This document shows positions 1-46,973 of a DNA stretch of 64,000 nt, in pieces (positions within the stretch are counted from its first letter, which is position 1; the number at the start of each line of letters is the position of its first letter). The DNA lies in IMG/VR virus record IMGVR_UViG_3300025141_000062, positions 1-64,000 of that record. The stretch is one strand, 5' to 3'. The translations under genes and the position numbers were made by a program. The notes beneath the pieces were generated by a model, which saw only the letters and a list, made by a program, of their open reading frames with translations, was not told the origin of the DNA and did no database searches. Origin of the DNA: a virus.

Positions 1-761
1 TTGATCAATCAAATAGATTTTTTGACACAATTATGCCAAAATTTATGACATATGCAAATTTATCAGATGGCTTTGGAAGAAATGAATCTACAGGATCTAT
101 TGATATGATAGCGTTTAATCCTACAACATTCTACATAGAGTCTTCAAATAACAGGCAGCCATTTCCATATTCTGGAAATCCAAGTAGAGTTGATGATGAT
201 CCAACTGGCGTGTGGCTACAGCAGGGTGCAGGAGGCGTAACAGGCCAGGCTTCAGCTCTAAGGGGCACACTAAGTGTTAAGCAGATACTTTTTACAGTTG
301 GGTTTAAGGGCGGATCAATAACAACATATGTCTACGGTCATGAAGGAATAAGAACAAAAATAATAAATACATTTAAGCATGCACATCCGTCTGCAACTGG
401 ATCTACTGGATTTAGATATGGAATTATGAACATTGTTCCAGAGTTTCCTAAGAATATATTTAGAAGAGATAGGTATGGACAGCTTAGGGATATGCTCGAG
501 CAAGGGTCAGAAGGAAGATTTTATAAGCCAAGGCTGTCTGATATCGAAACTACAAGAAAGGGTATAAATACTAAAGATACATATGTTGGAGATCCGGCGG
601 TCTACAGCACGTTTACTGAAGCAAGCTCTTTTACAGAAGTCTCTCCATCTTCTACAGCATGCTCAAATCTAAGCTTTGCATCAACGTCATCTCTCCCTTA
701 TTTTGACGGAGAGACAAGAAATCGAGCATATACAACAGATACTGTTATTCTGGTTTCATAA
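1..761 (+). CDS. C-terminal part of a hypothetical (probably virion) protein, truncated by the window start
   Basis: The frame is open from position 3 up to the ATG at 33, so the true start is probably upstream of the window. The stop overlaps the next ATG (TAATG). Confidence 0.6.
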   Translation, partial: DQSNRFFDTIMPKFMTYANLSDGFGRNESTGSIDMIAFNPTTFYIESSNNRQPFPYSGNPSRVDDDPTGVWLQQGAGGVTGQASALRGTLSVKQILFTVGFKGGSITTYVYGHEGIRTKIINTFKHAHPSATGSTGFRYGIMNIVPEFPKNIFRRDRYGQLRDMLEQGSEGRFYKPRLSDIETTRKGINTKDTYVGDPAVYSTFTEASSFTEVSPSSTACSNLSFASTSSLPYFDGETRNRAYTTDTVILVS

Positions 762-1387
762 TGTCATTTAGTGTTTCAAAGGACAGTGCTAGAAGAAATG
801 AAAGATACACTGTTAGAAGTGGCTCAGACGATGGGCATATTGATGTAGTAATATTTCCAAACAGACTACAAATAGGGCTGGACGATAGTGATTTTAACCA
901 TGTTAACGTGATATCAGGAAGTCTCAAAGTTACAGAAAGCGTTACTGCAACAGAGGCAGTTACTGGAAAAATTCTCTATTACACATACCATAATTTTACA
1001 ATTTCATCAACAAGCGTCAATTACATTCCAATAAACACAGTCTCAGAAAGCACATCTGAAACAAACCAGGGTGTAGGGTTTCAAGCCCCTCACGATGGTC
1101 AGCTTAAAAGAGTCTTAATTAAGGTAAACGGAGCATGGGGTTCTGGATTTTTACATCTAACAACAATTGCATTTCACAAGGGTGGGAACGGTACAGAAGG
1201 AGTGGATTCAACTGCTTTGGAGTCTAAAACTGTTCAACTAAGCAGTGCAAATACAGTAAAGACTGCATCTTTTTCAACTGCAACCTTTAGTGCAGGAGAC
1301 ACAATTGCAGTTTCAATTGATCCATATGCAAGTGATTCGAGAATAGTTAGGATGACTTGTGTTTGGGAATATGACACTAATACATAA
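761..1387 (+). CDS. hypothetical virion protein, beta-rich C-terminal domain (fibre/decoration-like)
   Basis: 208-aa S/T-rich ORF with a beta-strand pattern, coupled to the upstream gene, in a structural-gene context. Confidence 0.45.
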   Translation: MSFSVSKDSARRNERYTVRSGSDDGHIDVVIFPNRLQIGLDDSDFNHVNVISGSLKVTESVTATEAVTGKILYYTYHNFTISSTSVNYIPINTVSESTSETNQGVGFQAPHDGQLKRVLIKVNGAWGSGFLHLTTIAFHKGGNGTEGVDSTALESKTVQLSSANTVKTASFSTATFSAGDTIAVSIDPYASDSRIVRMTCVWEYDTNT

Positions 1388-1406
1388 TTAATGAAGAGGA
1401 AAGGCT

Positions 1407-5260: not shown

Positions 5261-5281
5261 TATTAAGAATAGAGGTGTGAA

Positions 5282-8200
5282 ATGTCAAAAGGTGTAGAGA
5301 TAGAGTCAATTCCCACATCTGCAGCTTGTGTCTGCAAGGGAACAATTATTAAGACACAAAGGGGAGACATTCCAGTAGAGAATATTGAAGTCGGTGATAG
5401 GGCATTTACATATAATTTTAATGAAAGAAGGCTTGAGTACTTTGATATACCCTGGATAACAGGGCCTAGAGATGTTGAAAGATACGTCAGAATTGTTACA
5501 TCACAGGGATATGAGATTAAATGTTCTGAAACACATCCAATTTGTAGTGATGATGTTTTATCCTGGGTAATAGATGCATGTGAAATGAAGGTGGGAAATA
5601 GCCTATTTGTGCTACATGAAGGTGAGATTGCTAGAGATACAGTCAAAGATATTGAAATATGTGATCAAAAGACAACAGTTTATAATTTTGAAGTAAGTAA
5701 GGTTCACACATATCTAAGCAATAATATATTGTCACATAACATGGCAGCTGCAGGTGCAACAGGCTCATCATCACATGGTGCCAAAACAGCTAGATATGCT
5801 ACCGGAACATTTGTCGTGCTAGGGGGAATGTCATCTGAAGAAAGCAGCTCTGAGCCTGGATCTACAACGGAAAGTACAACAGAGTGGGTGTCAGAATATC
5901 CCGGAGAAGGAACATCTTCAATTACATTATATACACACGGATCTACTGGAAAGGTAGACTTTATAGATTCTATTTCTGAAATACTTGAAGAATTTACAAG
6001 TCCAGCAAGAACTATCGGATTATCAACAGGTGCACCTGAAATTATAGCAAGCATAGACTTTGTTCCTGTCTATAATAGTGACTCTTCAGACGACGTTAAT
6101 ACAGAGGTTAAAGACTCTCTTTATCAAAGTGCACTACTTGATACACTGACTAGAGAGGCAACTAGAAACTCTCTAAGAAAAATTATAGATAATGAAGATG
6201 GTGTAACAGACACAATAATATCGCAGATAGGAGATCAGCTTTCAACAATAAGCTCATATAGTGAACTTTCTGCAGTCATATCAAGTCTCAATAGCAAAAG
6301 ATACTATACGATGGGGCTAGGTGTGGGTGGTGACTTATCTGCAATATATTATGATCTGTATACAATGTTTAGATATCTAAGAGATGTTTTTGACGTAAAT
6401 TTCTCAACAGGCGATATGATACCAGCATTCATGGAAACAGACGCAACTGATACAAGAAATCTCGGATCAGAAACATATCTATCAACAGAAAATTCTGGAC
6501 CGCTCGGGGCAGCTGCTACTTCAATTGCATATTTTTTTAAAAATTATTTAAATTTTTCAGAAGATGCATATGCAAGCTCATCTGCAACTAAAATAGTTGG
6601 ACAGATTGTACAGGACCTGAGAAGGTCAATATTTATGTCATCTCCAATAGCAGCCATGGAGGGCTCTAGCTTTTCATATGCCACTGAAGATGGAACATCT
6701 GATAGGGCAAATACGCTAATCCCGTATACTGTTGTCGACGATACAGATGCTGATTATTGTAATATGTCATCTACAAATACTTCAATAGCTTATTTAAATA
6801 AAGCATATGAGGATATTGGAACTCTTGAAGGTGTTGTAGACGAAGATGGAAATCTAATATCGCTATTTGGAATAAGCCAGGATAATTATACTTCTTTTGT
6901 AAAGGGCTTGCCAGATTCTGGTGTAGAGACAGTTACATCAATTCTTCACATTATCGGTCGCGAGATAAATCTGTCATTTTGTAATCTTATGCCTGAGGTT
7001 CATAGCATAGTAAATAGTCTAACTGGTGACTCAAGCTTCTACATAGACCAGACAGATCAAGCAAATTCTGCAAGCGTGCCTGGTCCACTAGAGATGATAA
7101 ACAAAGTCCTTGGAAATATAGCAGGATCTCTGGGATCATCAGACCACACTCAAAATATTGAATCAATATCAACACTTATAAATCCTTCATTCACCCCTAC
7201 CGCAGCTGACGGATCAGAGGCTTCAAAGATATTTATGTTTGAGAAGTTTTCAATAGACGATTCATTTGGCATAGATGCAATTGCTGGATATGATGCCTTT
7301 GCTGGAGATCTTGTCAGCGGAATTAGAGACTATGTGGACACTGGTACGATGACATTCTCATCTCTATCTGAGTGGAGCAGTGACTGGGCAGCAAAGGGAT
7401 CATCAATAAGACATCTTATTCCACTTATGATCGGCGGCGCGAGAGGTCAAACCGCCCTCCCAGCACATATGTTCAACTATCTCGCTCAATACATCTTACA
7501 AAATCAGATAACAACAGACTACGGCCTCGAGGGCTATCTTCAGTCAGATTCAGGTAGAGAAAATCTAGACGAGCTAGAAATGATAAGGCTTTATGTCATG
7601 AAGCTCGCTGGAGAAAATCCAACAGTAGGATACTATCTAGCAAGATATCTTGATCTAAGATTTTATATGCAAGCTCTCGATGAGATACCAAAATTTTCAG
7701 CATTTGGATCAAGTGAGACAGGCTCATATGACGCAGTTGTTGATGAAGATAGGGCAAATAACTTAGATATCTCTTCTTTAGATAGCGATCTTATGTCAAA
7801 TCTTCAGAGTGTATATAAACAGTTCTATAGTGCAGCGAGCGATCTTGCAACAGAAGTTTTTAACGTAGTTCACGTATCATCTAGCACAGAAGAAAGTCTT
7901 GAATCAGTTCTTGATGAAATAGATGAAAATTTCTATAGAAGTGAAGATGAGACAGCAATCCTTGTAACAACCATGGAGCAAGAAGAAGATTTTGACGTTC
8001 TAGAGACAGTTTTAGGAATTGCGCTAGTCACGCAGGATAACACATCTCTAACAAGATCTATATTTGATCTTCCAGCGCTTATTTTTAATGAATTTATAGA
8101 AGAGGCCGACGGAGTTGACTACTTTGAAGATTTAGGAATGGCTGGCCTCTTATTTCCTCACGAGCCTTCTGTTGAAGAGATGATCGGTTCAAAGTCAGTT

Positions 8201-10165
8201 GAGGATTTTGAATCTAAGGTATCAAACTGGAAAACAACATATAGGGAGCTTTCATCAAGCTGTATGAGAAGCGCAATATCTCACTGTATATCAACAGTGC
8301 TTAGTGATTCAAGCTTTGGGATAAGCAATGCAATTAATTTAGCAATGCCTAGAGATATACTTGAAATCGATGGAGATTCATCGTGGGTAATAGGCTCTGT
8401 AATCCATATAGACTATGTTAAGTTTACTGAATTTTCAGTTGCCGTTGCAAATATACTAGATGAGAATGTTACATTTTCCGGAGATATGCTTCTTGTTGAT
8501 GTAGATGCAGAAGCAACAGGTGAATCACTAGCATCTACTGCTCATACATATTTTTCTAGTAATTCAGACACGTATATGTCTACAGACGGAACGTGGACGT
8601 CAATAAATACAGTATTTTCTGCTCTAGCAGAAGACTATGCAACAACTATAGGGCTTGCAGAGATTCCATCACTTATAGCTGGAAATATATCTCAAAGATA
8701 CACTGATCTCCAAGCTGTTTTTAGCTCTTCTGGCTTTAAGAGTGCAATGCACATTACAGATATGCTTACACAGTCATGTCTTTCAAATGAGACATCGCTA
8801 TACGGCATGGACTATGATGACATATTTTCATCAATTGTGTCAAAATTTATGACGCCAGAGGGTGTATCGTCTATGTACGTTCATCGAGCAAGGGCACTGC
8901 TCCTATCACCGGGAGGATGCTTCGATGACGAAATAAGCCAAGAAGGTGTTCAGAACAGCGGCGAAGATCTCTTAATGCCCATGTCAGAAGTAATACCGCA
9001 GAGCTACCTAATAGAAAGAGTTATTCCATTTACGAGAATTGCAAATATAAATGGCGAAGTTTCACTTACAGGAGATCCAAGCACAGATAGAAAGAAAATT
9101 ATTACAGTCGGAATTCCTGCCGGACTATGCGAAAGGTTGCGTGAGCAGGCTTCACAATACGCTGGAGACGGAATGGGTGAAAGCAAGGTTTATGAGAATA
9201 GCTCCTTAATTAATATAAAGATATTTAAGAAAGATCTTGATGTGGGAAATGTGTACTACTATCCCATGAACTTTCTATTTGACACATCGCTTTGGGTAAA
9301 TCCCGGCATACAGAGTGTAGAGTCGATAACAAGCGATATCTTTGGAGGAACAGGCTGGTACTCTCCATCTGAAGTTGAGTACGACACAGCAGACCAAGAA
9401 ACTGAATTACTTCAAGGCATGGGCTGGGTTTATTGCCATATACCTCCGAGAGGGGATGGACCTGCAGCAACAGGAGCTTCTGGCAATCTATACTCATCAT
9501 ATGACCTTGAAAGTAACCTTAGAATTGTTTCAAATAAGTTCGATTCAGATGAGGTATTTAAAAATCACGCATACGATAGGTTTCTAAAGTCATACATAAA
9601 GCTCATGTCCGGACTAGATGTAAATGAAAATAAATTTAACCTATTTAAAGATGCTACATCTACACAATCAGATGTCAGCTCCGGGGTAGGGAATAACGTT
9701 ACAGCTATCGCAGAAGCCCTCTCAGGGTATGCTGATCTATCTAGTTCTGAACTTGACAACCAAGAGAATGACACTATGAAGCTAGATATTCTTAAAATAT
9801 TGAAGCATGGAATAACAAATAGCATTCTAGGTGACTTCTCACCTTCGACATACACAGCAGATAGAATAGTTGCCTGTGCAAGGCAGACTTATGCACTTTC
9901 TAGTGATAAGTACATTAACCAGATATACCTACCTCAGATATTTGATAGAATATTTTGTATGATTATAGATCCAGATGCATTTGTACTTAGCGGTGAGACA
10001 GATGATGGTGGTTCTGACTTTCTCGGCGATCTTTCTTCCGCCGGCATAGATGTTGACTATAAATCTGAGCTATTTAATATTTACGCAACAGTTGAAATAG
10101 TTTCAACGACAGATGCCACAGCATATACGTCGACTAATATTGATGATGGAAAATTTACAACATAG
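5282..10165 (+). CDS. large acidic putative virion protein with an N-terminal Hint (intein-like/BIL) domain
   Basis: Residues 16-153 carry block A CVCKGT, block B CSETHP and blocks F/G VYNFEVSKVHTYLSNNILSHN. The remainder is D/E/S-rich with no recognised motif. Confidence 0.75.
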   Translation: MSKGVEIESIPTSAACVCKGTIIKTQRGDIPVENIEVGDRAFTYNFNERRLEYFDIPWITGPRDVERYVRIVTSQGYEIKCSETHPICSDDVLSWVIDACEMKVGNSLFVLHEGEIARDTVKDIEICDQKTTVYNFEVSKVHTYLSNNILSHNMAAAGATGSSSHGAKTARYATGTFVVLGGMSSEESSSEPGSTTESTTEWVSEYPGEGTSSITLYTHGSTGKVDFIDSISEILEEFTSPARTIGLSTGAPEIIASIDFVPVYNSDSSDDVNTEVKDSLYQSALLDTLTREATRNSLRKIIDNEDGVTDTIISQIGDQLSTISSYSELSAVISSLNSKRYYTMGLGVGGDLSAIYYDLYTMFRYLRDVFDVNFSTGDMIPAFMETDATDTRNLGSETYLSTENSGPLGAAATSIAYFFKNYLNFSEDAYASSSATKIVGQIVQDLRRSIFMSSPIAAMEGSSFSYATEDGTSDRANTLIPYTVVDDTDADYCNMSSTNTSIAYLNKAYEDIGTLEGVVDEDGNLISLFGISQDNYTSFVKGLPDSGVETVTSILHIIGREINLSFCNLMPEVHSIVNSLTGDSSFYIDQTDQANSASVPGPLEMINKVLGNIAGSLGSSDHTQNIESISTLINPSFTPTAADGSEASKIFMFEKFSIDDSFGIDAIAGYDAFAGDLVSGIRDYVDTGTMTFSSLSEWSSDWAAKGSSIRHLIPLMIGGARGQTALPAHMFNYLAQYILQNQITTDYGLEGYLQSDSGRENLDELEMIRLYVMKLAGENPTVGYYLARYLDLRFYMQALDEIPKFSAFGSSETGSYDAVVDEDRANNLDISSLDSDLMSNLQSVYKQFYSAASDLATEVFNVVHVSSSTEESLESVLDEIDENFYRSEDETAILVTTMEQEEDFDVLETVLGIALVTQDNTSLTRSIFDLPALIFNEFIEEADGVDYFEDLGMAGLLFPHEPSVEEMIGSKSVEDFESKVSNWKTTYRELSSSCMRSAISHCISTVLSDSSFGISNAINLAMPRDILEIDGDSSWVIGSVIHIDYVKFTEFSVAVANILDENVTFSGDMLLVDVDAEATGESLASTAHTYFSSNSDTYMSTDGTWTSINTVFSALAEDYATTIGLAEIPSLIAGNISQRYTDLQAVFSSSGFKSAMHITDMLTQSCLSNETSLYGMDYDDIFSSIVSKFMTPEGVSSMYVHRARALLLSPGGCFDDEISQEGVQNSGEDLLMPMSEVIPQSYLIERVIPFTRIANINGEVSLTGDPSTDRKKIITVGIPAGLCERLREQASQYAGDGMGESKVYENSSLINIKIFKKDLDVGNVYYYPMNFLFDTSLWVNPGIQSVESITSDIFGGTGWYSPSEVEYDTADQETELLQGMGWVYCHIPPRGDGPAATGASGNLYSSYDLESNLRIVSNKFDSDEVFKNHAYDRFLKSYIKLMSGLDVNENKFNLFKDATSTQSDVSSGVGNNVTAIAEALSGYADLSSSELDNQENDTMKLDILKILKHGITNSILGDFSPSTYTADRIVACARQTYALSSDKYINQIYLPQIFDRIFCMIIDPDAFVLSGETDDGGSDFLGDLSSAGIDVDYKSELFNIYATVEIVSTTDATAYTSTNIDDGKFTT
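5327..5740 (+). other. Hint domain (138 aa, no homing endonuclease); +1 residue is Met
   Basis: Starts TGT (Cys16), ends CAT AAC (His-Asn), followed by ATG at 5741. Confidence 0.85.
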
Positions 10166-17400: not shown

Positions 17401-17413
17401 GATGGATTTTTAA
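14402..17413 (+). CDS. LamG/concanavalin-A-like domain virion protein with a C-terminal fibre-attachment domain
   Basis: LamG-type motifs FTFDFYINP, NKWHHVAIRW, FFIDGNEV, LFIGN, VHDLKIY. C-terminus paralogous to 13098..14381. Confidence 0.65.
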   Translation: MSIIKITPDLIELVSLKTHPKVKFVSSSIGVVNTEVTSSSGIVSHSGTLGEVSLLPRTNRVIKSTRQFDITSALFNEDQLELAINLKNAVTLTEAGETDIQSYMGHATPWPHSSTEGSIDGAPASEAYDQGYMRAVNQAKKSSKQLKTFQISRFRPSFLFEDEGFTNHELLTASLPAKTKGVKSHIENVLLKKYKSHYTNPNYSYTNYHSLNFFTSSHTNTLHGHSVVSSSVLIYPCMTSSNRTDQGPHLTGTTRFTGRYCPEGAFTFDFYINPRYSNDGPVGQGAGDSNNSFNAGTIFHMSSTFAVSLISGSSVDEFGKCDGYRLLLQLSHSAGYPPSRFTITASSNNPVYNGNLARYKDRDFRYAFLSPDNSLQRNKWHHVAIRWGTKNINDGTGSFFIDGNEVSRFCIPETSIAQTVFTLTDDHAEDNRVNSYLRAAGKIDADSNQPISDPDALFIGNFYEGKNTTGSNATSINRFFNWKAQNLEGFSQGQNSGQQKGLHIEDGDPKSYAFNHPLNAEVHDLKIYASYRTSDQILTSSRHGPENSDDLLFYLPPFFVKEGFDRRFFGTAVQTIKKHQVAHDQANDSFFDTYLSRPFNAGLSMTVDSTLINLENFCRDLVQGVYPRLLFLTASAISDVEMQTQYDNKEKPWRFPNGSVSAPQRRVSDLLFSTASLAKRCLTILPCDNGKFLPNYSLILSGANDSKPTSGSEMSLFVDDYGHSDISSISLKNLFTQTPTAMTLIPDGGSSVDTIVDTLNYYTGTGVSGLYDSWRGSSSGFGDGDMSDENTGPLASPDRPNGAICFESTSSIPRFMVYQATQDSSSNEVVIFNIPNLFYGNRISPGTFKLSDKNLSGSRGKVSMTLKDDGFGTLYRADSITENAKFNCVGNIFYEEGLVLIKSPHLVHFGKREFEMEFKGDQNIHVMSVNVPCEPGLVNSSSNPAFKSLSASFDANDYNNEFVYITSVYLHDDNFNVIMKANLAQPVVKRESDEFLFRIKMDF

Positions 17414-30328: not shown

Positions 30329-30329
30329 C

Positions 30330-34547: not shown

Positions 34548-34568
34548 TGTAAGATTTACATTGATCTC

Positions 34569-34600
34569 AAAGGGGCGGCTTTTTAGCCGTCCCTTTTTTT
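34569..34600 (+). terminator. rho-independent terminator after MCP
   Basis: AAAGGGGCGGCT-TTTT-AGCCGTCCCTTT followed by a T tract. Confidence 0.85.
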
Positions 34601-34634
34601 ATTAACTGATTGAATCAGTTGGTTATTATCTAAT

Positions 34635-35513
34635 ATGATAATTTCACACAAGAATAGATTTGTATTTTTTAAACCTATGAAAGTTGCAGGATCAAGCTTA
34701 GAGGTTGCTTTAAGCAGATTTTGCGGAAAAGATGATATATTAACTGGTACAAATCACATAGCAGAAAATCTATCTAGTGAATATGAATATCCAGCTAGAA
34801 ATAATATGATATCACAAAATCTGAAACGAGATGCTGCAATTGAGGCTATGAGGGCATCTGGAAATATCGACAAAGTCACAAAAGAAATGATTGATGAAGG
34901 ATTTATTGTACGCTTCCTAGAGCCAAGGTTTCATATGCACGCAACTCCGTTACAGGTTCAGCTATCAGAAGACATAGACACATCAAGCTATAGGCAGATA
35001 ACAATAATAAGAAACCCCTGGGATATGATTGTTTCATTTTTTTGGTGGTCTTTCTATACTCTTCCAAACGGATATGTTGATAAAAATGGAAACGTATATA
35101 AGAAAGATCAAGCATATAGGCTTTCACCGGCTAGAAATCCAGATATTTCACCAACAGAGAATGACACCATATCAGAACTTAGACTAAAGTTTGAGATATT
35201 TTGTCAAATGTCTGCTGATATGATAGGTCCATACGGATTAGAGAAAAATGTCAAAGTTGTTGACTGGTTTATTAATAGAAATTTAGAATACTACGCCGAT
35301 AGCATAGATCATATTTTAAGATTTGAATCAATTCAAGATGACTACAATGCTCTCTGCAAAGACCTGTCTCTAGATTCTTCACCACTCCCAAGACTTAAGA
35401 CATCTCAGAGAAAATTAAAGACACCCTATAGAGAATATTTTAATGACTGGACATACAATTACATAGAAAGCAGAGTTAGCCAGTGGAAAGAAAAATTTAA
35501 ATATTCTTTCTAA
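34635..35513 (+). CDS. sulfotransferase (Sulfotransfer_2-like family)
   Basis: MIISHKNRFVFFKPMKVAGSS (5'-PSB loop), IIRNPWDMIVSFFWW (3'-PB motif), ILRFESIQDD, YREYF. Confidence 0.75.
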   Translation: MIISHKNRFVFFKPMKVAGSSLEVALSRFCGKDDILTGTNHIAENLSSEYEYPARNNMISQNLKRDAAIEAMRASGNIDKVTKEMIDEGFIVRFLEPRFHMHATPLQVQLSEDIDTSSYRQITIIRNPWDMIVSFFWWSFYTLPNGYVDKNGNVYKKDQAYRLSPARNPDISPTENDTISELRLKFEIFCQMSADMIGPYGLEKNVKVVDWFINRNLEYYADSIDHILRFESIQDDYNALCKDLSLDSSPLPRLKTSQRKLKTPYREYFNDWTYNYIESRVSQWKEKFKYSF

Positions 35514-35543
35514 CTTAGTGACTTGATAAGAATACTTACTGAT

Positions 35544-35601
35544 AAGCCCGGCACCTAGCATAAAGGCGACCCCACCGTCGTGTCGGAAGCATGTGGACTT
35601 A
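35544..35601 (+). ncRNA. candidate structured cis-regulatory leader RNA (pseudoknot-capable)
   Basis: GC-rich island in an AT-rich spacer. CCGGCAC (35548-54) pairs with GTGTCGG (35580-86), inner GAC/GTC hairpin, loop CCAC complementary to GTGG (35593-96). Confidence 0.45.
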
Positions 35602-35625
35602 ACACCTATTAAAAGGGAGAAAATT

Positions 35626-36006
35626 ATGCCAAAAATGACCTATACAACCGCTAAGGGCTTAGTTCAATCAGGAGGATCTGGTGCTCCAAATATGTACTGG
35701 ATGAAGCCAGGAAGCACAACTGCTTCAGGTGCTGGTGCAATTCCAGTCACACATGCATATGTTGCTGCCACAGCCGGCGGTGCCGTTGCCTGGACTCTTG
35801 CCGATGGCGACCCCGGTCAGGTTCTACAAATTTATTCAGTAGATGCAAACACCGGAACACTTACACCTACAACTGCGACGGGTTGGGCAACAATCGTATT
35901 TACCGACGCGGGTGACCGTGCTGTGCTTCAATTTATTGATGGTACTATTGGGTGGATAATTCTCGGTCTTTCAGGAGTTGCAGCTCCACCTGTTACTACA
36001 GTTTAA
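35626..36006 (+). CDS. small A/G/T-rich beta protein, putative capsid decoration protein
   Basis: ATG at 35626 after GGGAG SD (MPKMTYTTAKGLVQ), with its own promoter motif and terminator. Confidence 0.55.
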   Translation: MPKMTYTTAKGLVQSGGSGAPNMYWMKPGSTTASGAGAIPVTHAYVAATAGGAVAWTLADGDPGQVLQIYSVDANTGTLTPTTATGWATIVFTDAGDRAVLQFIDGTIGWIILGLSGVAAPPVTTV

Positions 36007-36052
36007 TTCATACCGTTAAGATAGACATCTATCTTATAAGAGTAGACAGCTT

Positions 36053-36082
36053 AAAGCCCGCACTATGTGCGGGCTTTTCTTT
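36053..36082 (+). terminator. rho-independent terminator
   Basis: AAAGCCCGCAC-TAT-GTGCGGGCTTT followed by TCTTT. Confidence 0.85.
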
Positions 36083-36141
36083 ATTTCAAAAAATAAGATA
36101 TTTTATTAAATATTTATAATGTGATACTATGGTAAGTTATC

Positions 36142-37374
36142 ATGGCAAGTACAATGAGAACTGTAAGAAAAAATTACAGTAAGCAAAAAAATGTTAAAAA
36201 TACAAATTCTCAATTCTACGCTGACGAAGAAGTTAGCAATGATGATGAGAGCGGTGATAAAGTGAAACCAGTAGATAAAAAAGAAAAAACAGAGAATGCA
36301 AAAAAGGAGACAGAAAAAATAATGTCCAATTCTAATGATGATTTTGATTTTGTAGCAGATTATGATGAACCAGTAGAGAGTGGTGGCGATAAGCTTTTAC
36401 CAGAAAATGAGGCACAATCCTCAATATCTGTAGGCTTTGTAGGTGTCGGCGGAGGCGGTGGAAAGCTAGCGAAGGCATTTATAGACATAGGGTTTAAAAA
36501 GACACTAGTCGTAAACACAACAGAAAAAGATCTACCTGCTGGAATAGACAAGGAACATTTTCTTCTTCTACCTGGCGCAGATGGTGTGGGTAAAAATGTC
36601 AAGCTAGGAAAGAAAATATTGACAGAAAATAGTGCATTTCTTGAAGACTTTTTAAGAACAAGGCTGGGAAAAGTTGACTGGCTCTTTGTCCTTGCTGGTG
36701 GCGGAGGAGGAACAGGAAGCTCTTGCTGCGCACTAGACGGAAGTCTTAATAGATATCTAAAGTCTACATCTGCATCTGGCAAGGTTGTATATATCGTTAC
36801 AGCACCAACAGCTCAGGAGCTTTTAAATCCAACTATTGAGGAAAACTACAAGCTTCTAAGAGAAGATGTCTCAGATAAGCCTCATATCATAATTGATAAT
36901 GAAAGACAGCTACAGCTTCTTAGAGGAAAGGTTGGAATGCTTGGTCTATATCCAGCAGCAAATAAGAACTTTGCAAAGCTAATTGGTCAGATATTAAAGC
37001 TTTCTAACGAGCCATCACCAATTCAGACTTTTGATTCAAAGGATCTTGAGAGATGTCTAAGTACACAGGGGAGAATGTTTCTAGGGACAACAGTGATAAG
37101 AGATCCAAGTGATCCGAACCTTGGATCGCTCATATATCAGAACTGCCTTAGCAAATCACCATGTCCAGCCCCTACTGGCCGAGCACAGACAGGCGTGCTA
37201 CTTCTTGTCGTTACATCTGAAATGGCTTCTGATCCAGCCCTAAGCAACCAATTAGAGGCAGCAATATCTTACGTGGGAGGAAGAACATCAGCCCTATTTT
37301 CAGGAGTCTATGTTAGAGAGGGTCTTCCCGGATTGATAGCAATATCAGCATTGGGTGGAATTGAAGAAAAATAA
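36142..37374 (+). CDS. tubulin/FtsZ-family GTPase (PhuZ/TubZ-like)
   Basis: VGVGGGGGK (T1), VNTTEKD, GADGVGKN (T3), AGGGGGTGS (T4 signature), IIDNE, FDSKD (T7-loop equivalent). Confidence 0.85.
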   Translation: MASTMRTVRKNYSKQKNVKNTNSQFYADEEVSNDDESGDKVKPVDKKEKTENAKKETEKIMSNSNDDFDFVADYDEPVESGGDKLLPENEAQSSISVGFVGVGGGGGKLAKAFIDIGFKKTLVVNTTEKDLPAGIDKEHFLLLPGADGVGKNVKLGKKILTENSAFLEDFLRTRLGKVDWLFVLAGGGGGTGSSCCALDGSLNRYLKSTSASGKVVYIVTAPTAQELLNPTIEENYKLLREDVSDKPHIIIDNERQLQLLRGKVGMLGLYPAANKNFAKLIGQILKLSNEPSPIQTFDSKDLERCLSTQGRMFLGTTVIRDPSDPNLGSLIYQNCLSKSPCPAPTGRAQTGVLLLVVTSEMASDPALSNQLEAAISYVGGRTSALFSGVYVREGLPGLIAISALGGIEEK

Positions 37375-37524
37375 TTTAAAGTAATTTATTTTTTAAATTA
37401 AATTCTATCTTTTATTATGGGACATTTTTTGATTCTATGCTGCATTTTTGCGATTGACATCATTATTTATTCTCTAGTCTAAGTACATACTTATTGATAG
37501 TTATTCTTCTAGAAGGAACTGTCA

Positions 37525-38700
37525 ATGGCAACTTTTTCAAATACAACTAGTCCTACACCGTTTGGATTTTTTGACGACGATACAGATTTTCAGCTCGAGG
37601 CTGACAATATAGTAACATTTGTCAAGAGAAAGATGGGTGATGATATCCTTAGTGTCGAGCTTACTAAGAAGCAGATCTGGGGAAACCTTGAAGAGTCCTG
37701 TCTCGAATATGGGTCAATTTTAAATCAGTATCAAGCTAAGTCACAGCTCATTCAATTTTTAGGAATGCCAACAGGAAGCCACCTTTCAGGATCAGAGCAG
37801 AAGTACCCTAGAGAGAATCTGGAGTATCTCATAAGATTTGCTGAACCATATGCTATGGAAGCAGGCGTCGGAGGATCCTATAATACAATATCGGGATCTA
37901 TTCAGCTAGTTAAAGATCAGCAAGACTATGATATATACACAGATTTAAAAGACTCGCACGGAGGAATATTATTTCAGTCTGGAAGTAATTCTTCACCCAA
38001 GACAAAGCTTAAGATAAGCGAGGTCTTTCACTTTGGCCCAGAGGCTGCATATAGATTTTTTGATACAACTAGTGCAATTAACTATCTTAATAATGAGTTC
38101 AGCTTTGAGTCATTCACACCAGAGACTATATTCTATGTTCTTCCAGTCTTTGAAGATATACTAAGAGCAGGCCAGTTAGACTTATCAAACAGGGTTAGAC
38201 GATCTAACTATTCATATAAGATTCAAGGTACAAAAATAAGGATATATCCGAAACCATCTACCTCTGACCCTAAAAAGCTATTTATAAGAATTATGTTTAG
38301 ACCAGACCCACTCAATCCTGCGTATGAAGATGATACAATTCATGGTGTTTCCAATCTTTCAAATATTCCGTTTGGAAATCTGATATACGCTAGGATTAAC
38401 AGCATAGGAAGACAGTGGATTAGACAGTATTCACTTGCACTAAGTAGAGAGCAGCTAGGGTTGATTAGGTCTAAATTTGGAAACATTCCTGTTCCGGGGT
38501 CTGATGTCACATTAAACGGATCAGACCTAATAACACAGGGAAGGGCAGATAGGGATGCACTTGTTACGCAGCTAAAGGAAATGCTTGACACGCTGACATA
38601 TGATAAAATTATGGAGAATGCTGCTACACGCGCAGAATCTGTTCAAAAACAGCTTAGATTTTCACCAATGCCAAATGGCTTTACAATCTTTATGGGATAA
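37525..38700 (+). CDS. neck/head-completion protein (T4 gp13-like)
   Basis: VELTKKQI, WIRQYSLALSREQLGLIRSKFGNIPVPG..VTLNG motifs, and position after the head module. Confidence 0.75.
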   Translation: MATFSNTTSPTPFGFFDDDTDFQLEADNIVTFVKRKMGDDILSVELTKKQIWGNLEESCLEYGSILNQYQAKSQLIQFLGMPTGSHLSGSEQKYPRENLEYLIRFAEPYAMEAGVGGSYNTISGSIQLVKDQQDYDIYTDLKDSHGGILFQSGSNSSPKTKLKISEVFHFGPEAAYRFFDTTSAINYLNNEFSFESFTPETIFYVLPVFEDILRAGQLDLSNRVRRSNYSYKIQGTKIRIYPKPSTSDPKKLFIRIMFRPDPLNPAYEDDTIHGVSNLSNIPFGNLIYARINSIGRQWIRQYSLALSREQLGLIRSKFGNIPVPGSDVTLNGSDLITQGRADRDALVTQLKEMLDTLTYDKIMENAATRAESVQKQLRFSPMPNGFTIFMG

Positions 38701-40653: not shown

Positions 40654-43600
40654 ATGTCTGAACAGACCTTCAGATCGCCGGGATTTTTTGAAAGAGAAAT
40701 CGACCTATCTCAAAGGTCCGAGGAGATTTCAGGTGTTCCAGCAGGTGTCATTGGAACATCAGAAACAGGACCTGCATTTATTCCTGTTACAGTTGGATCA
40801 TTTGCTGACTTCCGGGCTAGATTTGGCGACCTAGACTCTACAAAGTTTGGGCCGTATGCGGCTAATGAATTTTTAAAAAATAGAACAGCACTAACCTTCA
40901 TAAGGGTTCTGGGCGCTGGATCAAATGAGACATCTACAGATATTGCCAATACAACAAATATGGGAACTGTAAAGAATGCAGGCTTTAAGATAATCGGAGC
41001 ACAGACAAATGCTTCGATTGGTGCTGGAAGATCTGGATTCTATGAGGGTGCAGTGCAGTTCATAGCTGCAAGGCATATTATTGACAAGAATGAAGATGTA
41101 GGTTTCCCAGTATTTTCTGACAATGTCAGCTATGGCCTAAGCCGTACAGATAGGGGTGATGAGGCGTTTCTCGTGAGAGGAATGGTCTTTATGTCAACAG
41201 CAAGCAAGCTTCAGATTCTTAGCTATGACGCAAATTACTCTCCAGCAACTGAGTCTGATCTTGCAACTGCAGGACCGGGATCACTTGGAGAAGCAAGCCC
41301 TCTCTATAAGAAGTTTAAGCTTGTTATATCAAGCTCAGCCGGGACTTCATTCGGTAGCGATGAAGGATATGCAGGATTAAAGATACTTACTGCATCTCTA
41401 GACCCATCGGATGATGCATATATTTCAAAGGTACTAAATACAGATCCAGAAAGATTTCAAATTGAGCAGCACCTTCTTTACGGTGACTTTGCCGTTGAAG
41501 ATGAAATAGCAACAATTTCAACAGGGTCTGGAGATATAGGCCTTCTTTCAGGATCAAATTCTACATCTCCGTCTTCTGGAGATACTTCTCTTGCATATAG
41601 AGATATGTTTGGAAGGTTTGACACAAGATATAGGGGCGCAAAAACAACACCGTTTATCTCTCAACCTTACGGTGAAAAAGAGTGGGATTTATTCCACTTT
41701 GAGACAATTGCAGATGGTGCTGCTATTAGTGATAAGTATAAGGTGTCAATATCTGATATTAGGATGTCATCTGATCCGAAAAATCCAGTTGGATCATTCT
41801 CTGTCCTAGTAAGGGCATTTGATGATACAGATACAGCACCTCAGGTGTTAGAGCAGTATGGAAACTGTACACTTGATAAGAATGATGATGATTTCGTTGC
41901 TAAAAAGATCGGCGACCTAAGCGTTAAATTTAACTTTGATGCAGAAGATCCCGATGAAAGAAGATTTGTTGTTAGGGGAAGCTATCCAAATGTTTCAAAC
42001 AGGGTCAGAATAGTCATGAGCAATGACTTCTTAAATGGAAATGTTCCAAGAGATGCACTTCCGTTTGGTTTTAGAGGCCTCCCTGTTCCTAAGACAAATA
42101 ACCTTCTGTGCGATGTAACTATTTCAAAATCCACAACACCTGCTGCGTCAGGAGTGCCACAATACCTGCTTGATGTTGTCGGCGGATCTGATACTGTCAG
42201 AATGGCATTTGTATCAGGCTCGTGGCATCAAACAGCAAACGAGCCCGATGACGATTCTCAGCCCCAACTTAAGCTATCAGGATCAATTGTTCCACCAGTT
42301 CCTCATAGATTTAAGGTGACCAGGGGTAATACATCTGTATCAAGAAGGACAGATGCAGCTCGCACTGCTGCAGGATATCCTGGAACAAATGAGAGGGCTG
42401 ATAACAGATACTATTGGGGTATCATGACAGCGAGGCTTCCAAGAACTGGCACCCTTGCTGATGCCATACTCAATCCAAATGTAGGTTCTGAGCCCAATCC
42501 TCTAGTTAGAAGCTATACTAAGTTTCTCGGAATTGAAAAGCTAGATTCTATGGTAACAGGATCTGGTGCAGATAGATTTAATGATAATAAATTCTCTCTA
42601 TCAAAGGTCGCACTTGGAAACAGGCTTGATGGAAGAACTCTAGTTAAGACACTAGAGGCTAACATTACAGGATCAGCAGATGAGCACATGCTAGATGCTG
42701 CATACATTAGAGATGGAAGGCCAATACCTGGAGACTACACTGTCCATGATCATGTCGGAGGGGCAACTAGAAGGGTGACACTGGGATCTTTGGTCTCGCT
42801 CACATCGTCTGTATATTTTAATAGATTTTCAAACTACAATAAGTTTACAAATATATTCTATGGCGGATTTGATGGAAACAATATTCTAGATGTTGATATG
42901 TCTAGAATGAATGATAGGGCTGCTTCAACTGATACAGGCGGAAAGGCTGGAAGGACAAATCCAGCTGCAAGCTCTGACCTTGATATTGGTCTTACATCAA
43001 CATATAACGTAGGGACAGGAAAGTTCAATAACGCGATATTCTCATACAGGTCTGCAATAGATATTATAACAGATCCCATGGTTACAAGGATTAATATCCT
43101 GTCTGTTCCAGGGATAAGAGATACATTTGTTACAGATCATGCTGCAGATAAGACACGTGACTACAGTCAGGCAATGTATCTTATGGATCTGCCACTATAT
43201 AACTCAGATGAAGTTAGAATGTTTGATAATGATGGCTTGAGAGCAAGTGTTGAAAAGACTGTTGAGAAGCTAGAGTCTCGGGCTGTTGATAACAATTATG
43301 TTGCAACATATTTCCCTGATGTAAGTATGATAGACGATAGCACAGGAAATCCTGTAAGGATGCCTTCTTCAATCGCTGCGCTATCTGCTCTCGGATTTAA
43401 CGATGCTGTATCATATCCATGGTTTGCACCAGCAGGATTTAACAGGGCAGCACTCTCAAATGTGGTTAACACATCATGCAGATTAAACAGCGCAGATAGG
43501 GATGATCTATATGATGCAAGAATAAATCCAATAGCAACATTTCCAAATGCAGGATTTGTTATATTTGGGCAAAAAACACTTCAGCAGGCAAAATCTGCAC

Positions 43601-43917
43601 TCGATAGAGTAAATGTTAGAAGAATGCTTCTCGAAGTTAAGCGCCTTGTATCAGAAATTGCAAGAAGTATTGTGTTTGAGCAAAATACACCGACAACTAG
43701 GGCGAAATTTGTATCGCAGGTGACACCTCAGCTAGCACTAATTCAAAGCCAGCAGGGAATTGATCAATTCAGAGTTGTTATGGATGAGAGCAATAATACT
43801 ACAGAAGACATAGAGTCAAATAGGTTAAATGGTAAGATTATTCTTGTTCCAACTAGAGCAGTTGAGTTTATATCAATTGACTTCATTATTACAAATTCTG
43901 GTGTTAGTTTTGAGTAA
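40654..43917 (+). CDS. contractile tail sheath protein 1
   Basis: SPGFFEREIDLS, GPAFIPV, PWFAPAGFNR, INPIATFP, GQKTL, SALDRVNVRRML, FEQN, EFISIDF. Confidence 0.93.
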   Translation: MSEQTFRSPGFFEREIDLSQRSEEISGVPAGVIGTSETGPAFIPVTVGSFADFRARFGDLDSTKFGPYAANEFLKNRTALTFIRVLGAGSNETSTDIANTTNMGTVKNAGFKIIGAQTNASIGAGRSGFYEGAVQFIAARHIIDKNEDVGFPVFSDNVSYGLSRTDRGDEAFLVRGMVFMSTASKLQILSYDANYSPATESDLATAGPGSLGEASPLYKKFKLVISSSAGTSFGSDEGYAGLKILTASLDPSDDAYISKVLNTDPERFQIEQHLLYGDFAVEDEIATISTGSGDIGLLSGSNSTSPSSGDTSLAYRDMFGRFDTRYRGAKTTPFISQPYGEKEWDLFHFETIADGAAISDKYKVSISDIRMSSDPKNPVGSFSVLVRAFDDTDTAPQVLEQYGNCTLDKNDDDFVAKKIGDLSVKFNFDAEDPDERRFVVRGSYPNVSNRVRIVMSNDFLNGNVPRDALPFGFRGLPVPKTNNLLCDVTISKSTTPAASGVPQYLLDVVGGSDTVRMAFVSGSWHQTANEPDDDSQPQLKLSGSIVPPVPHRFKVTRGNTSVSRRTDAARTAAGYPGTNERADNRYYWGIMTARLPRTGTLADAILNPNVGSEPNPLVRSYTKFLGIEKLDSMVTGSGADRFNDNKFSLSKVALGNRLDGRTLVKTLEANITGSADEHMLDAAYIRDGRPIPGDYTVHDHVGGATRRVTLGSLVSLTSSVYFNRFSNYNKFTNIFYGGFDGNNILDVDMSRMNDRAASTDTGGKAGRTNPAASSDLDIGLTSTYNVGTGKFNNAIFSYRSAIDIITDPMVTRINILSVPGIRDTFVTDHAADKTRDYSQAMYLMDLPLYNSDEVRMFDNDGLRASVEKTVEKLESRAVDNNYVATYFPDVSMIDDSTGNPVRMPSSIAALSALGFNDAVSYPWFAPAGFNRAALSNVVNTSCRLNSADRDDLYDARINPIATFPNAGFVIFGQKTLQQAKSALDRVNVRRMLLEVKRLVSEIARSIVFEQNTPTTRAKFVSQVTPQLALIQSQQGIDQFRVVMDESNNTTEDIESNRLNGKIILVPTRAVEFISIDFIITNSGVSFE

Positions 43918-43955
43918 CTTATATTTAATTATTAGAAACTTTGGAGAAAAGAAGA

Positions 43956-46900
43956 ATGCCTGAACTGACATTCAAAAGCGCTGGTATCAGCGTAAGAGAA
44001 ATTGATCTATCGCAGCCGACTCCTACAACACCAACTGGTGTTCCTGCAGGTATTATCGGAACATCAAATGAAGGCCCGGCTTTTGTCCCTGTGACAGTTG
44101 CAAACTTTAGTGAATTCATATCTAGATTTGGTTCAACAGATGGTGAAAAATTTGGGCCTCTAGCAGTCAATGAGTGGCTTAAGAATGCATCTTCTGCAAC
44201 ATACATTAGAGTTCTAGGTGCTGGAGACGGAAAGAGAAGAAATACAAGCACAGGAAAAGTTACAAACGCTGGATTTGTAGCTGGTGCACAACAGGTCCAA
44301 GCAACTGGAATAGTTGCAGCAAATCCGTTTGCAAATACCGGAGGAGACACAGGAAACACATATTTTCTAGGCTGTTATATGTCTCAGTCGTCTAACTCCT
44401 CTGTATTTATAGATGCAGGAAATATAGATCATAAGCCGATAGTTAGAGGAGTCTTAATGGCACCCGATGGTGTTATATTAAGGCTCTCAAGCTCCTCGCC
44501 GACTGGTTCAAATCTTATGAATGCACCAGGTTCAACTGTAATTGGCAAAGAGGGCAACACTCTTATGCGAGGAGCAGTTACAGGGTCTGTAGATCTTGCA
44601 AATGGAAACTTTGTCATGATGCTCAATGGCCACAAGGGAACAGCTGAGAATCCCAGAGTCATTACTGCATCGTTTGATGTCAATTCTCCTATGTATCTTC
44701 CAAACGTCTTTAACACAGATCCGTTTAGCATTCAAGAAGCAGGACACTATCTTTACAGCCACTATGACATCCACAGCTCTCAGGCAGTCGCTACAGGCTC
44801 AGGCTTTATAGTTCAAAACTATCCAGGCCCTCATAGAATAAATCTTGGAGAGGGAGATCACGTACTTGAGCCTATTGCATTCCTAACAACAGGTGCCCTT
44901 GCTGGAGGAAGCTCAACTGTTCCAGACTATAGGTCATTTGAAGATAGATTCGCAACTGCAAAGTCTCCATATGTCATATCACAGGAGTTCGGCGGAAGCC
45001 CTTATAATCTATTTAAAGTTGAATCTTTATCAGATGGCTCAGCTTCAAACACTAGATTTAAAATATCAATAGAAAATATTGCAAAATCGAATTCTGATGC
45101 AAATCAATTTGGAAAATTTGACCTTGTAGTTAGAGATTTTTATGACAATGATTCAGAAAAGGTAGTTCTTGAGCAATTTAGAGGGCTTTCACTGGATAGG
45201 GATTCTGATAGATATTTTGCTAGAGTCATAGGTGATCAAAAGATCTATTTTGACTTCGACCAAAAATCAACTGCACAAAAGATGGTTGTAGATGGTGATT
45301 TTAAAAATCAGTCAAGGTATATAAGAGTCAATGTATCTTCTGAGGTTGTTGCAGGATCTGTACCGGACAATGCACTACCACTAGGATTTAGAGGCCACTT
45401 CCATCTTGTTACATCTGGAACAGCTCCTTTAACAACCGTATTAGATGGATCCGGCGGTGGGGGTCCAAACACGCTGGCTGCTGACATGGCTTCAAATGTA
45501 CTAAAGCGGTCAATCGTTCCGCCCGTTCCGTTTAGAGATAATTTAAATATTGGATTAGACCCTAAGAAAGTAGTGCAGCCAAGTCTTTACTGGGGATGTC
45601 AATTTACAAGAAAGGTAGACTTAGACCAGCCAAACAAGCCTGATCTTTTTGAAAGAAGCTTTGAAGGCTATGCCAAATATTTTCCAACATTTGCTGTCTC
45701 AAATCTAAATGTCTCTGTTGGAGATAATGAAGGAAAGGCAGACACATCTGCAAACCCACTTCTTGATGCAGACAGATTTAATAACAATAAGTTCACACTA
45801 GAAAACATTAAGGTGAGAACTGGATCTGATACTTACGCAGATCCGAAGGAATGGGTAACAGCTTCATATGTTAGAAATGGAGACATATCTGCAAATCCCG
45901 GACTTAAGACTAGAGCATTCTCAGTTAATGATCTTGGGGTCGTTGGAAATAGAAAATATGCCAAGTTTACATTCTTCCTTCAAGGAGGATTCGATGGTAC
46001 AAATATCTTCAATAAGGATAAGTCAAACCTTCTAGACAATGCAGCAAAAAGAGAGATGGATGATTCATCAAATCAGGGCGGAAAAGATGGTCCAACAGTT
46101 GCATCATATAGAAAGGCAATAGACATCATTGGTAGCAAGACAGATGCTGAGATAAAGCTACTTGCTATCCCAGGGATGAGAGACGAGTCGATATCAGACT
46201 ACGCAATAGATGCAGTTGAAAGTAGATTTGATTCAATGTATATAATGGATATTGAGGAATATGACACTGTCAACAAGATAGTTACATCATCAATCCAAGA
46301 TGTAGGTGTTTCAAATACAGTTACAAAGTTCAAAAATAGAGCACTAGACACATCATTTGCTGCTGCATACTTTCCAGATGTAGTTGTGCAGGATCCGACG
46401 ACATTAACAAATGTTAAGGTTCCGCCATCTGTTGCAGTTCTGGGCGCATTCTCTCTAAACGATACACTTGGACACCCATGGTTTGCTCCTGCAGGATTCT
46501 CTAGGGGGTCTCTGACGTCAGTAATACAGGCCTCAGTAGACCTTAACAGGGCAAATCTTGATGAGATCTATGATGCAGACATTAACCCACTCACAGACTT
46601 CCCGGGAACAGGTGTAGTTGTTTGGGGTCAAAAGACACTCCTTGCAGCAGCTTCTGCTCTTGACAGGGTTAATGTTAGAAGGCTTCTAATTGATATAAGA
46701 AGAAAGGTTAGAGCAATTGCAAATACGCTTCTATTCGAACCAAATAGAGAGTCAACATTAGAGAAGTTTTCCGGCCTGGTTAATCCAATCCTTCAGAAGA
46801 TTCAGGAGCAAAGCGGGCTAGATAGATATAAGGTCATAATTGACACAACAACAACTACACAAGCAGATATTGAAAATAACACCATTAGAGGAAAGATCTT

Positions 46901-46973
46901 TGTACAGCCTACTCGAACAGCAGAGTTTGTTGCACTAGACTTTGTTGTCACTAATGCAGGTGCTATTGTCTAG
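43956..46973 (+). CDS. contractile tail sheath protein 2
   Basis: Same sheath motifs (PWFAPAGFSRG, WGQKTL, LDRVNVRRLL, FEPN). ATG at 43956 after GGAG. Confidence 0.93.
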   Translation: MPELTFKSAGISVREIDLSQPTPTTPTGVPAGIIGTSNEGPAFVPVTVANFSEFISRFGSTDGEKFGPLAVNEWLKNASSATYIRVLGAGDGKRRNTSTGKVTNAGFVAGAQQVQATGIVAANPFANTGGDTGNTYFLGCYMSQSSNSSVFIDAGNIDHKPIVRGVLMAPDGVILRLSSSSPTGSNLMNAPGSTVIGKEGNTLMRGAVTGSVDLANGNFVMMLNGHKGTAENPRVITASFDVNSPMYLPNVFNTDPFSIQEAGHYLYSHYDIHSSQAVATGSGFIVQNYPGPHRINLGEGDHVLEPIAFLTTGALAGGSSTVPDYRSFEDRFATAKSPYVISQEFGGSPYNLFKVESLSDGSASNTRFKISIENIAKSNSDANQFGKFDLVVRDFYDNDSEKVVLEQFRGLSLDRDSDRYFARVIGDQKIYFDFDQKSTAQKMVVDGDFKNQSRYIRVNVSSEVVAGSVPDNALPLGFRGHFHLVTSGTAPLTTVLDGSGGGGPNTLAADMASNVLKRSIVPPVPFRDNLNIGLDPKKVVQPSLYWGCQFTRKVDLDQPNKPDLFERSFEGYAKYFPTFAVSNLNVSVGDNEGKADTSANPLLDADRFNNNKFTLENIKVRTGSDTYADPKEWVTASYVRNGDISANPGLKTRAFSVNDLGVVGNRKYAKFTFFLQGGFDGTNIFNKDKSNLLDNAAKREMDDSSNQGGKDGPTVASYRKAIDIIGSKTDAEIKLLAIPGMRDESISDYAIDAVESRFDSMYIMDIEEYDTVNKIVTSSIQDVGVSNTVTKFKNRALDTSFAAAYFPDVVVQDPTTLTNVKVPPSVAVLGAFSLNDTLGHPWFAPAGFSRGSLTSVIQASVDLNRANLDEIYDADINPLTDFPGTGVVVWGQKTLLAAASALDRVNVRRLLIDIRRKVRAIANTLLFEPNRESTLEKFSGLVNPILQKIQEQSGLDRYKVIIDTTTTTQADIENNTIRGKIFVQPTRTAEFVALDFVVTNAGAIV

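Follow-up and report, generated by a model that had tools for sequence, protein, structure and literature searches.

Several systems of O-glycosylation offer points of comparison for the sequence element described here. The GtfA/GtfB O-GlcNAc transferase pair of serine-rich-repeat adhesins is encoded by adjacent GT4-fold genes and works on Ser-Ala-Ser or Ser-x-Ser acceptors, and the general O-glycosylation system of the Bacteroidota uses the sequon D-(S/T)-(A/I/L/V/M/T). The Mimivirus fibrils and the chlorovirus capsid are served by virus-encoded nucleotide-sugar genes and glycosyltransferases (GTs). The glycosylation machinery of giant viruses has been described as autonomous (PMC4691112). 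Phage-encoded GTs place glycans at the C termini of capsid and tail-tube subunits in mycobacteriophages, according to a summary of Freeman et al. 2023 (PMC12619734), and the acceptor Ser or Thr of the Aah/TibC autotransporter heptosyltransferases is reported to lie where a loop connecting two strands begins (PMC3835316, citing Charbonneau et al. 2012). Our subject is a tripeptide, [ST][GAS]S, in the proteins of an uncultured virus, IMG/VR record IMGVR_UViG_3300025141_000062, of which we analyzed the first 64 kb (64,000 nucleotides, hereafter the window) of a 74-kb contig. An earlier reading made from the letters of this DNA (the sequence-only reading) had proposed the tripeptide as the sequon of a glycosylation or sulfation system acting on exterior virion proteins. 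The motif is in excess in a few virion protein families, follows a strict residue pattern, is inherited at fixed positions, and is biased toward the predicted ends of secondary-structure elements. We give about an even chance to the explanation that it is a conserved structural turn carrying no covalent modification; a role as a glycan acceptor is possible but more doubtful.

Every long open reading frame (ORF) of the window lies on the plus strand. The window encodes a T4-like virion module with a gp23-type major capsid protein (MCP) of 642 amino acids (32619-34547, + strand; PF07068, E 2.8e-76, 257.8 bits, above cut-off), two tail sheath paralogues, and a gp13-like neck protein; TerL and the portal match annotated genes of Flavobacterium phage immuto, the prohead protease is of gp21 type, and replication genes occupy the 3' end. 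Full-length MCPs 65 to 82% identical to that of the window occur on more than 599 IMG/VR contigs, some of which reach 200 to 370 kb; the contig studied here is therefore a fragment of an uncultured, T4-like jumbo phage belonging to a large clade. Its nearest cultured relatives are immuto, Microcystis phage Mel-JY01, and Rhodothermus phage RM378. Among the uncultured relatives, G001 is a complete genome of 369 kb with 429 ORFs; the ORFs of relatives were called mechanically.

Expected motif counts derive from composition, with 2,000 whole-protein shuffles per window protein. Naming proteins by the first nucleotide of their genes, the conserved 427-residue protein 13098 (13098-14381, +) has 11 sites, six of them SGS, against 3.0 expected (z 4.9), and the 1,003-residue protein 14402 (14402-17413, +), which has a central ConA/LamG/pentraxin-type jelly-roll, has 21 against 5.4 (z 7.0). 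The sheaths 40654 (40654-43917, +; 1,087 residues) and 43941 (43941-46973, +; 1,010 residues) have 10 each, against 4.5 and 3.3, respectively. The MCP has 8 against 3.1, and the neck or head-tail adaptor protein (37525-38700, +), whose sites include PTGSHLSGS, ISGS, and QSGS, has 4 against 1.1. The other 40 proteins of the window are at expectation (58 observed, 68 expected). When all 8,000 tripeptides are ranked by over-representation in the six named proteins, the top three places go to SGS, TGS, and TAS, which are at expectation in the remaining 40; this ranking, together with replication in independent proteins and genomes (below), counters the objection that the motif was chosen post hoc.

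The enrichment survives residue shuffling restricted to blocks of 10, 20, or 40 residues, so residue order, and not overall or local S/T/G content, is responsible, and an origin in composition or local low complexity can be rejected. A DNA-level signal, whether a single codon word or GATC/GGATC, is rejected as well: codon usage is mixed, GATC is at expectation (328 against 311), and the share of GGATCN is no higher in [ST]GS than in other xGS dipeptides. The by-eye counts of the sequence-only reading agree, exactly or nearly, with the computed ones in the motif-rich proteins and the low controls alike. The low controls, correctly contrasted there, are the protein that reading named Mre11-Rad50 (1 site), TerL (23292-24920; 1 site against 1.1), the portal (24967-27087; 0 against 1.5), and an 863-residue protein that it called the tape measure (48740-51331, +; no family match; 0 against 2.3). 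With the last three at or below expectation, the motif is not a genome-wide property. Its remark that a hydrophobic residue often precedes the motif also holds, since sites of the enriched families have a hydrophobic residue at position -2 in 60% of cases and at -1 in 57%, against a background of 32%. This context is confined to the enriched families; instances of the motif elsewhere lack it.

The residues of the motif itself are tightly specified. In a position scan over 349 orthologues, S (4.9x) and T (4.0x) are the only residues enriched at the first position of X-G-S; at the third position of S-G-X, S alone is enriched (4.9x; T reaches 1.9x); and in the middle of S-X-S, G (4.9x) stands above S and A (~2.5x). 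Asn and Asp are not enriched (NGS 0.4x, DGS 1.4x, SGN 0.8x, SGD 1.4x), and control families are flat. Taken with the hydrophobic preference at -2 and -1, the scan therefore gives the element a five-residue form, hydrophobic-hydrophobic-[ST]-[G>A,S]-S.

Hundreds of relatives in IMG/VR show the excess, inherited in the same families, although the orthologue sets are phylogenetically nonindependent. Observed-to-expected ratios are 3.4x for 13098 (n = 78, 60% identity), 3.8x for 14402 (n = 72; 15 sites against 4.0 at 35% identity), 2.9x for the neck protein (3.6 against 1.2), 2.3x and 2.7x for sheaths 40654 and 43941, and 1.7x for the MCP (an average of 4.8 against 2.8, with the window's value of 8 at the top of the range). 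Two smaller families belong to the same set: the 323-residue virion-module protein 1407 (1407-2378, +), weakly enriched in the window at 5 against 2.1 and at 2.4x in orthologues, and the 144-residue protein 28548 (28548-28982, +), with 3 sites (LTGSISGSG) against 0.8 and 3.7x in orthologues. Orthologues of TerL, the portal, Mre11-Rad50, 10175, 3389, 5282, 12370, and the rest have ratios of 1 or less.

Within the enriched families, the sites stay where they are. In 13098, 82% of instances fall in 8 alignment columns (79 sequences), and in 14402, 69% fall in 17 columns despite identity of 35%. Invariant Ser/Thr residues include S31/S33, T52/S54, and S312/S314 in 13098 and S26/S28 and S940/S941 in 14402; SGS161 is present in 82 of 82 MCPs and SGS123 in 51 of 52 neck proteins. 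Sporadic sites occur at or below chance (for example, 4.7 per sequence against 4.0 in 14402 and 1.5 against 2.4 in 13098), and thus nothing suggests that sites turn over or that selection favours a high density of motifs. In AlphaFold2 models of 13098 and 14402, whose predicted local distance difference test (pLDDT) scores are 64 and 70, 14 of the 32 sites begin no more than three residues from the C-terminal edge of a strand or helix, as do 9 of 15 conserved sites; the background is 24%.

Where in the virion these sites lie was captured in part by the label "exterior virion proteins." All eight MCP sites fall at residues 73 to 375 of 642, in a clade-specific insertion (~residues 60 to 375), and the sheath sites are mostly N-terminal to the conserved sheath domains (PF17482, above cut-off in both; PF04984, above it in 43941 and below it in 40654). 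The motif lies in lineage-specific, probably outward-facing parts of the MCP and sheaths. The label fits less well elsewhere: 28548 may be an internal head protein, from its place directly 3' of the gp21-type prohead protease, and the large serine-rich proteins 2379, 5282, 10175, 51595, and 55422 show no enrichment; the motif is therefore not a mark of all large virion-module proteins. Enrichment is confined to 13098, 14402, both sheaths, the neck protein, the MCP insertion, 28548, and 1407, and the tail tube protein 47028 has no site at all. The claim that these proteins have unrelated folds is largely borne out by hhalign, with two qualifications. The sheaths are tandem full-length paralogues (33% identity, about four aligned motif sites in common), and 13098 (residues 236 to 427) and 14402 (residues 807 to 1003) share a homologous C-terminal domain. 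Beyond these, BLAST and hhalign revealed no cryptic domain shared among the enriched families.

The pattern recurs in other genomes. In G001, nine ORFs hold the excess (129 sites against 39; 35 against 4.2 for the form with hydrophobic context): four giants at 347 to 364 kb, the orthologues of 14402, 13098, and the sheaths, a 331-residue "vgvS[GA]S" repeat protein in the slot between the MCP and neck genes, and a 340-residue protein at 197.5 kb whose sites lie in Ser/Pro-rich low complexity without hydrophobic context. The G001 giants, which played no part in defining the motif, give 22 sites against 4.0 (p 3e-10). The remaining 420 G001 ORFs are near expectation, and 46 other ORFs of at least 400 residues give 53 against 59. 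The baseplate module of Mel-JY01, its five tandem paralogues with the 13098-type C-terminal domain included, has 81 sites against 26. In immuto, a 373-residue protein has 17 against 2.9, partly with a six-residue period; the immuto MCP and neck protein are not enriched, and the repeat protein has no homologue in cultured phages outside immuto.

Orthologues from two other lineages behave differently. T4 gp6, gp7, gp13, gp18, and gp23 together have 26 sites against 30, none with hydrophobic context, and gp6, gp13, and gp23 have none of any kind. RM378 has no excess; its 13098 orthologue, of the same length, has 1 site against 1.2. The motif as a universal property of these protein families is therefore rejected, and the trait is lineage restricted and not demanded by these folds. 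Distant homologues of 13098 align over the last ~100 residues only, which precludes a comparison of individual sites, and the best 120 sheath homologues listed are all clade members, so that the sheaths supply no distant control.

The reading to which we assign about an even chance is that the element is a strand-end turn in beta-rich, lineage-specific outer virion modules, namely, the fibre-like giants, the LamG-bearing baseplate proteins, the sheath and capsid insertion domains, and the neck protein. There it would end a beta strand or a helix: two buried hydrophobic residues would close the strand, and the hydroxyl residue, glycine, and serine would follow as a tight polar turn, located either on the surface or where subunits meet. 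Selection would keep the turn itself through folding, assembly, or hydrogen bonding between subunits. We prefer this explanation because the whole excess sits at fixed columns without turnover, because the hydrophobic context at -2 and -1 is limited to the enriched families, and because sites favour strand and helix ends in the models. The regular strand-turn-strand repeats of the fibre-like proteins (the 373-residue immuto protein, the 331-residue G001 protein, and the giants) fit it too, as does the disfavour of Thr relative to Ser at position 3, which is expected of a turn residue. So do two observations on enzymes taken up below: a dedicated protein-glycosylating family is missing from five clade genomes, and the conserved GT4 pair has a counterpart in RM378, where the motif is not enriched. 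The element shares with ordinary beta-turn or strand-terminating motifs its small polar residues and Gly after buried hydrophobics, its fixed positions, and its placement at predicted element ends. If it is only structural, it would still serve as a lineage signature for recognizing outer virion modules in an abundant group of uncultured phages.

Several observations weigh against the structural turn. The T4 and RM378 orthologues dispense with the motif, and Ser-Gly-Ser is thus no requirement of the fold. Generic turn formers such as NGS, DGS, SGN, and SGD are not enriched in its stead, and the strict hydroxyl-Gly-Ser requirement, in which Asn and Asp are not accepted, departs from ordinary beta turns. 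About 50 conserved sites follow one five-residue pattern in at least seven unrelated families plus the nonhomologous giants, and with 420 other G001 ORFs near expectation, this convergence looks like a pattern read in trans. The AlphaFold2 models, moreover, are of moderate confidence only.

A pattern read in trans would be accounted for if the element were the acceptor site of a phage-encoded, cytoplasmic O-glycosylation system operating without the sulfotransferase, an alternative that we hold to be possible but doubtful. The convergence of the motif in unrelated virion families and almost no other ORF, the fact that T4 and RM378 orthologues with the same fold lack it, and the strict hydroxyl requirement at positions 1 and 3 all speak for it, and the glycosylated capsid and tail-tube subunits of mycobacteriophages, as summarized in PMC12619734, provide a precedent. 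The fixed sites tell against it, as a shield-type sequon would be expected to turn over, and so does the lack of enrichment in the serine-rich large proteins 5282, 10175, 3389, and 2379 of the same module. The motif is a candidate sequon at most.

The sequence-only reading saw no glycosyltransferase, and none was found on the whole 74-kb contig, but this is an effect of truncation, as the relatives' glycan cluster lies just beyond the position of the contig end: in the closest relative, the GTs lie 15 to 45 kb past the point that corresponds to window base 1. GT2 and/or GT1 genes occur in nine of ten large relatives; the tenth, G004, is uninformative, with its contig ending 13 kb beyond the 13098 orthologue. 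Relatives carry seven to nine GT genes plus nucleotide-sugar pathways in clusters of 19 to 30 kb (G005:127000-146999, locus L165; G001:313000-341000; G006:1400-31600). The ~19-kb G005 cluster has seven GTs (three GT2 and four GT1/GT4), RmlA/B/D-like enzymes, a PseB/PglF-type dehydratase, a DegT aminotransferase, a GNAT protein, and a UDP-glucose dehydrogenase. In G001, the most motif-rich giants directly follow the glycan cluster. A conserved 636-residue GT2 protein has domain-level similarity to chondroitin synthase (E 1.3e-3) that is too weak to use.

In five clade genomes, three of them at least 91% complete, the initiating phosphoglycosyltransferase (PF02397) and the Wzx flippase (PF01943) are absent, and the cluster therefore fits a soluble acceptor. 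The same five genomes also lack the known cytoplasmic protein-GT families Maf/MptE (PF01973), GT41 (PF13844), and GT9 (PF01075), a point against protein glycosylation.

An adjacent GT4 pair, GTa and GTb, is orthologous in the three motif-bearing lineages (the clade, represented by G005, immuto, and Mel-JY01), while T4 lacks both motif and pair; G001, G002, G003, and G006 have pairs of GT1 matches at corresponding spacing. A PD-(D/E)XK nuclease gene followed by the GT4 pair is conserved in the clade (L165:15969-19246), immuto (L189:1965-5884), and Mel-JY01 (L188:1376-6303), where GTa is split into two ORFs. In RM378 (L190:2166-4894), a GTa orthologue and a faint GTb-like neighbour adjoin DNA polymerase and RNR (ribonucleotide reductase) genes, and there is no motif excess. 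The putative link of transferases to motif is a co-occurrence across five lineages only. A side observation in RM378 is a UDP-galactopyranose mutase-like gene among the baseplate genes (L186:15773-16924), present despite the absence of a motif excess.

The pair matches only generic soluble GT4 enzymes (MshA, BshA, and chlorovirus B736L) and the Pfam family "GT4-conflict." A GtfA/B-like identity is not supported, with scores of 17.2 bits against a cut-off of 574.6 for GtfA (TIGR02918) and 15 against 800 for SdgA. Its position beside a PD-(D/E)XK nuclease, the GT4-conflict match, and the RM378 pair without the motif make DNA a credible alternative target, and nuclease and GT4 pair together may be a DNA-modification module.

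Set against the systems introduced above, the element agrees with each in part. As in the mycobacteriophages, relatives of this phage carry their own GTs and virion proteins are the proposed target, but the candidate sites here are internal, number ~4 to 20 per protein, have a five-residue form, and are missing from the tube protein. The strand-end geometry predicted for the sites in the AlphaFold2 models (pLDDT 64 to 70) may resemble that of the Aah/TibC acceptors; in contrast, Aah has no sequence consensus, whereas the element is sequence strict, and an enzyme of its GT9 type is absent from the five clade genomes, one of them complete. The two adjoining GT4-fold genes and the Ser-x-Ser-type sequence are reminiscent of GtfA/GtfB, but the phage pair scores only 17 bits against the GtfA model, and its candidate acceptors would be isolated turns rather than long serine-rich repeats. 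The element is unlike the Bacteroidota sequon, with Asp or Glu at -1 in 1% of sites and Gly, Ala, or Ser at +1. Rhamnose-type, aminotransferase, and acetyltransferase genes, together with several GTs and no lipid-carrier or export steps, recall the giant viruses, which differ in infecting eukaryotes and in the proteins and sites that serve as acceptors; here, moreover, the cluster may act on DNA.

It is no more than a tentative proposal that a widespread group of aquatic T4-like jumbo phages (the clade, Mel-JY01, and immuto) sugar-coat their virions through their own cytoplasmic glycan factory, with attachment at hydrophobic-hydrophobic-[Ser/Thr]-Gly-Ser where surface loops begin. Were it true, this would be the first sequence-defined O-glycosylation sequon of a tailed-phage virion, and the glycosylation sites of phage virions would become predictable from sequence alone. 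It would also account for the large sugar clusters of jumbo phages that have no export machinery and would be relevant to the masking or tuning of aquatic phage surfaces with respect to adsorption, aggregation, grazing, or immune recognition. The question is directly testable, since the motif and the conserved transferase pair occur together in two phages in culture, Mel-JY01 and immuto.

A reader of another kind, acting in trans through docking of a decoration or cement protein, an assembly-chaperone tag, phosphorylation, or O-sulfation, would explain why the pattern converges in unrelated virion families and appears nowhere else in the proteome, but we consider it improbable, and a candidate reader protein was not identified. 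One candidate, for O-sulfation, is the sulfotransferase-like gene beside the MCP gene (34635-35513, +), put forward by the sequence-only reading as a component of the system. The product is a probable, apparently intact sulfotransferase, as predicted from a match below cut-off to Pfam Sulfotransfer_2 (PF03567; E 1e-3, 19.7 bits, cut-off 22), from PHROG 3347 (E 4e-8), and from the segments KPMKVAGSS and RNPWDMIVS, which by eye resemble the 5'-phosphosulfate-binding (5'-PSB) and 3'-phosphate-binding (3'-PB) loops that bind 3'-phosphoadenosine-5'-phosphosulfate; there is no NCBIfam match. In Pfam and PHROG, it falls with carbohydrate, not protein, sulfotransferases. Although the gene is present in the four nearest relatives that cover the slot (L001 to L004), it occurs in only 9 of the 51 relatives spanning it, and the MCP motif count is indifferent to it (4.6 with the gene, 4.8 without), so its proposed part in the system is not supported.

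The interval that contains this gene, between the MCP and neck genes (34548-37524), is a hypervariable accessory slot, with a gap of 96 nucleotides to 7.5 kb among the 51 relatives and differing cargo. In the window, it holds the sulfotransferase, a Thr/Gly/Ala-rich protein of 137 residues (35593), and a tubulin/FtsZ-like protein (36142), the last on a weak match below cut-off (PF00091, E 5e-5).

That the motif is a statistical by-product of post hoc choice, Ser/Gly composition, low complexity, paralogy, or a DNA signal such as GGATC is very unlikely and largely refuted: motif and protein list were indeed picked by eye, the sheaths are paralogous and 13098 and 14402 share a domain, every S/T/G permutation is enriched ~2x in 14402, and the MCP ratio falls in orthologues, but the excess survives even 10-residue block shuffles, the leading tripeptides rank first to third of 8,000, GATC and GGATCN use are unremarkable, and the pattern is replicated in independent proteins and lineages (the G001 giants, Mel-JY01, and immuto).

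Some of the proteins concerned merit separate comment. The window opens with the C-terminal fragment of a giant fibre-like protein (3-761, +) that has three motif sites, not significant on their own. Its ORF is open at the 5' end and its product is 41.5% identical to a 1,445-residue G001 protein with 16 sites against 6.3; the contig start therefore falls inside a fibre-like gene. The 208-residue protein that follows (761-1387, +), also named by the sequence-only reading, has 3 sites against 1.7, which is not significant, and belongs to no Pfam or PHROG family.

Protein 13098 is possibly a gp6-like baseplate wedge, and 13098 and 14402 would then form a gp6/gp7-like pair. The gene order (a small protein, then proteins of 427 and 1,003 residues) and the shared domain resemble such a pair but are suggestive only: Foldseek and VIA-align found nothing above noise for the 13098 fold, with T4 gp6 at only Z 2.7, and searches of PDB sequences with the 13098 and 14402 family profiles gave no match. 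In Mel-JY01, each of five consecutive genes (L187:11453-20399) closes with a C-terminal domain of 13098 type; this baseplate module has thus undergone tandem expansion in a cultured cyanophage.

Both ~1,000-residue sheath paralogues are retained in the complete genome of G001, and two proteins may thus make up the tail sheath. In the same genome, at a great distance from the head module, two small adjoining ORFs of 135 and 202 residues (G001:120305-121317) resemble parts of the MCP at 33 to 52% identity and may represent a capsid-gene fragment or a decoration-type derivative. The tape-measure-like protein and its neighbours 51595 and 55422 (48740-59654; G001:230329-240891) have 8 motif sites in all against ~26 expected, which may reflect helical or Gly-rich structure. 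Finally, the 1,627-residue product of 5282-10165 carries an N-terminal Hint/intein-type domain at residues 22 to 147 (PF07591, E 1.9e-8).

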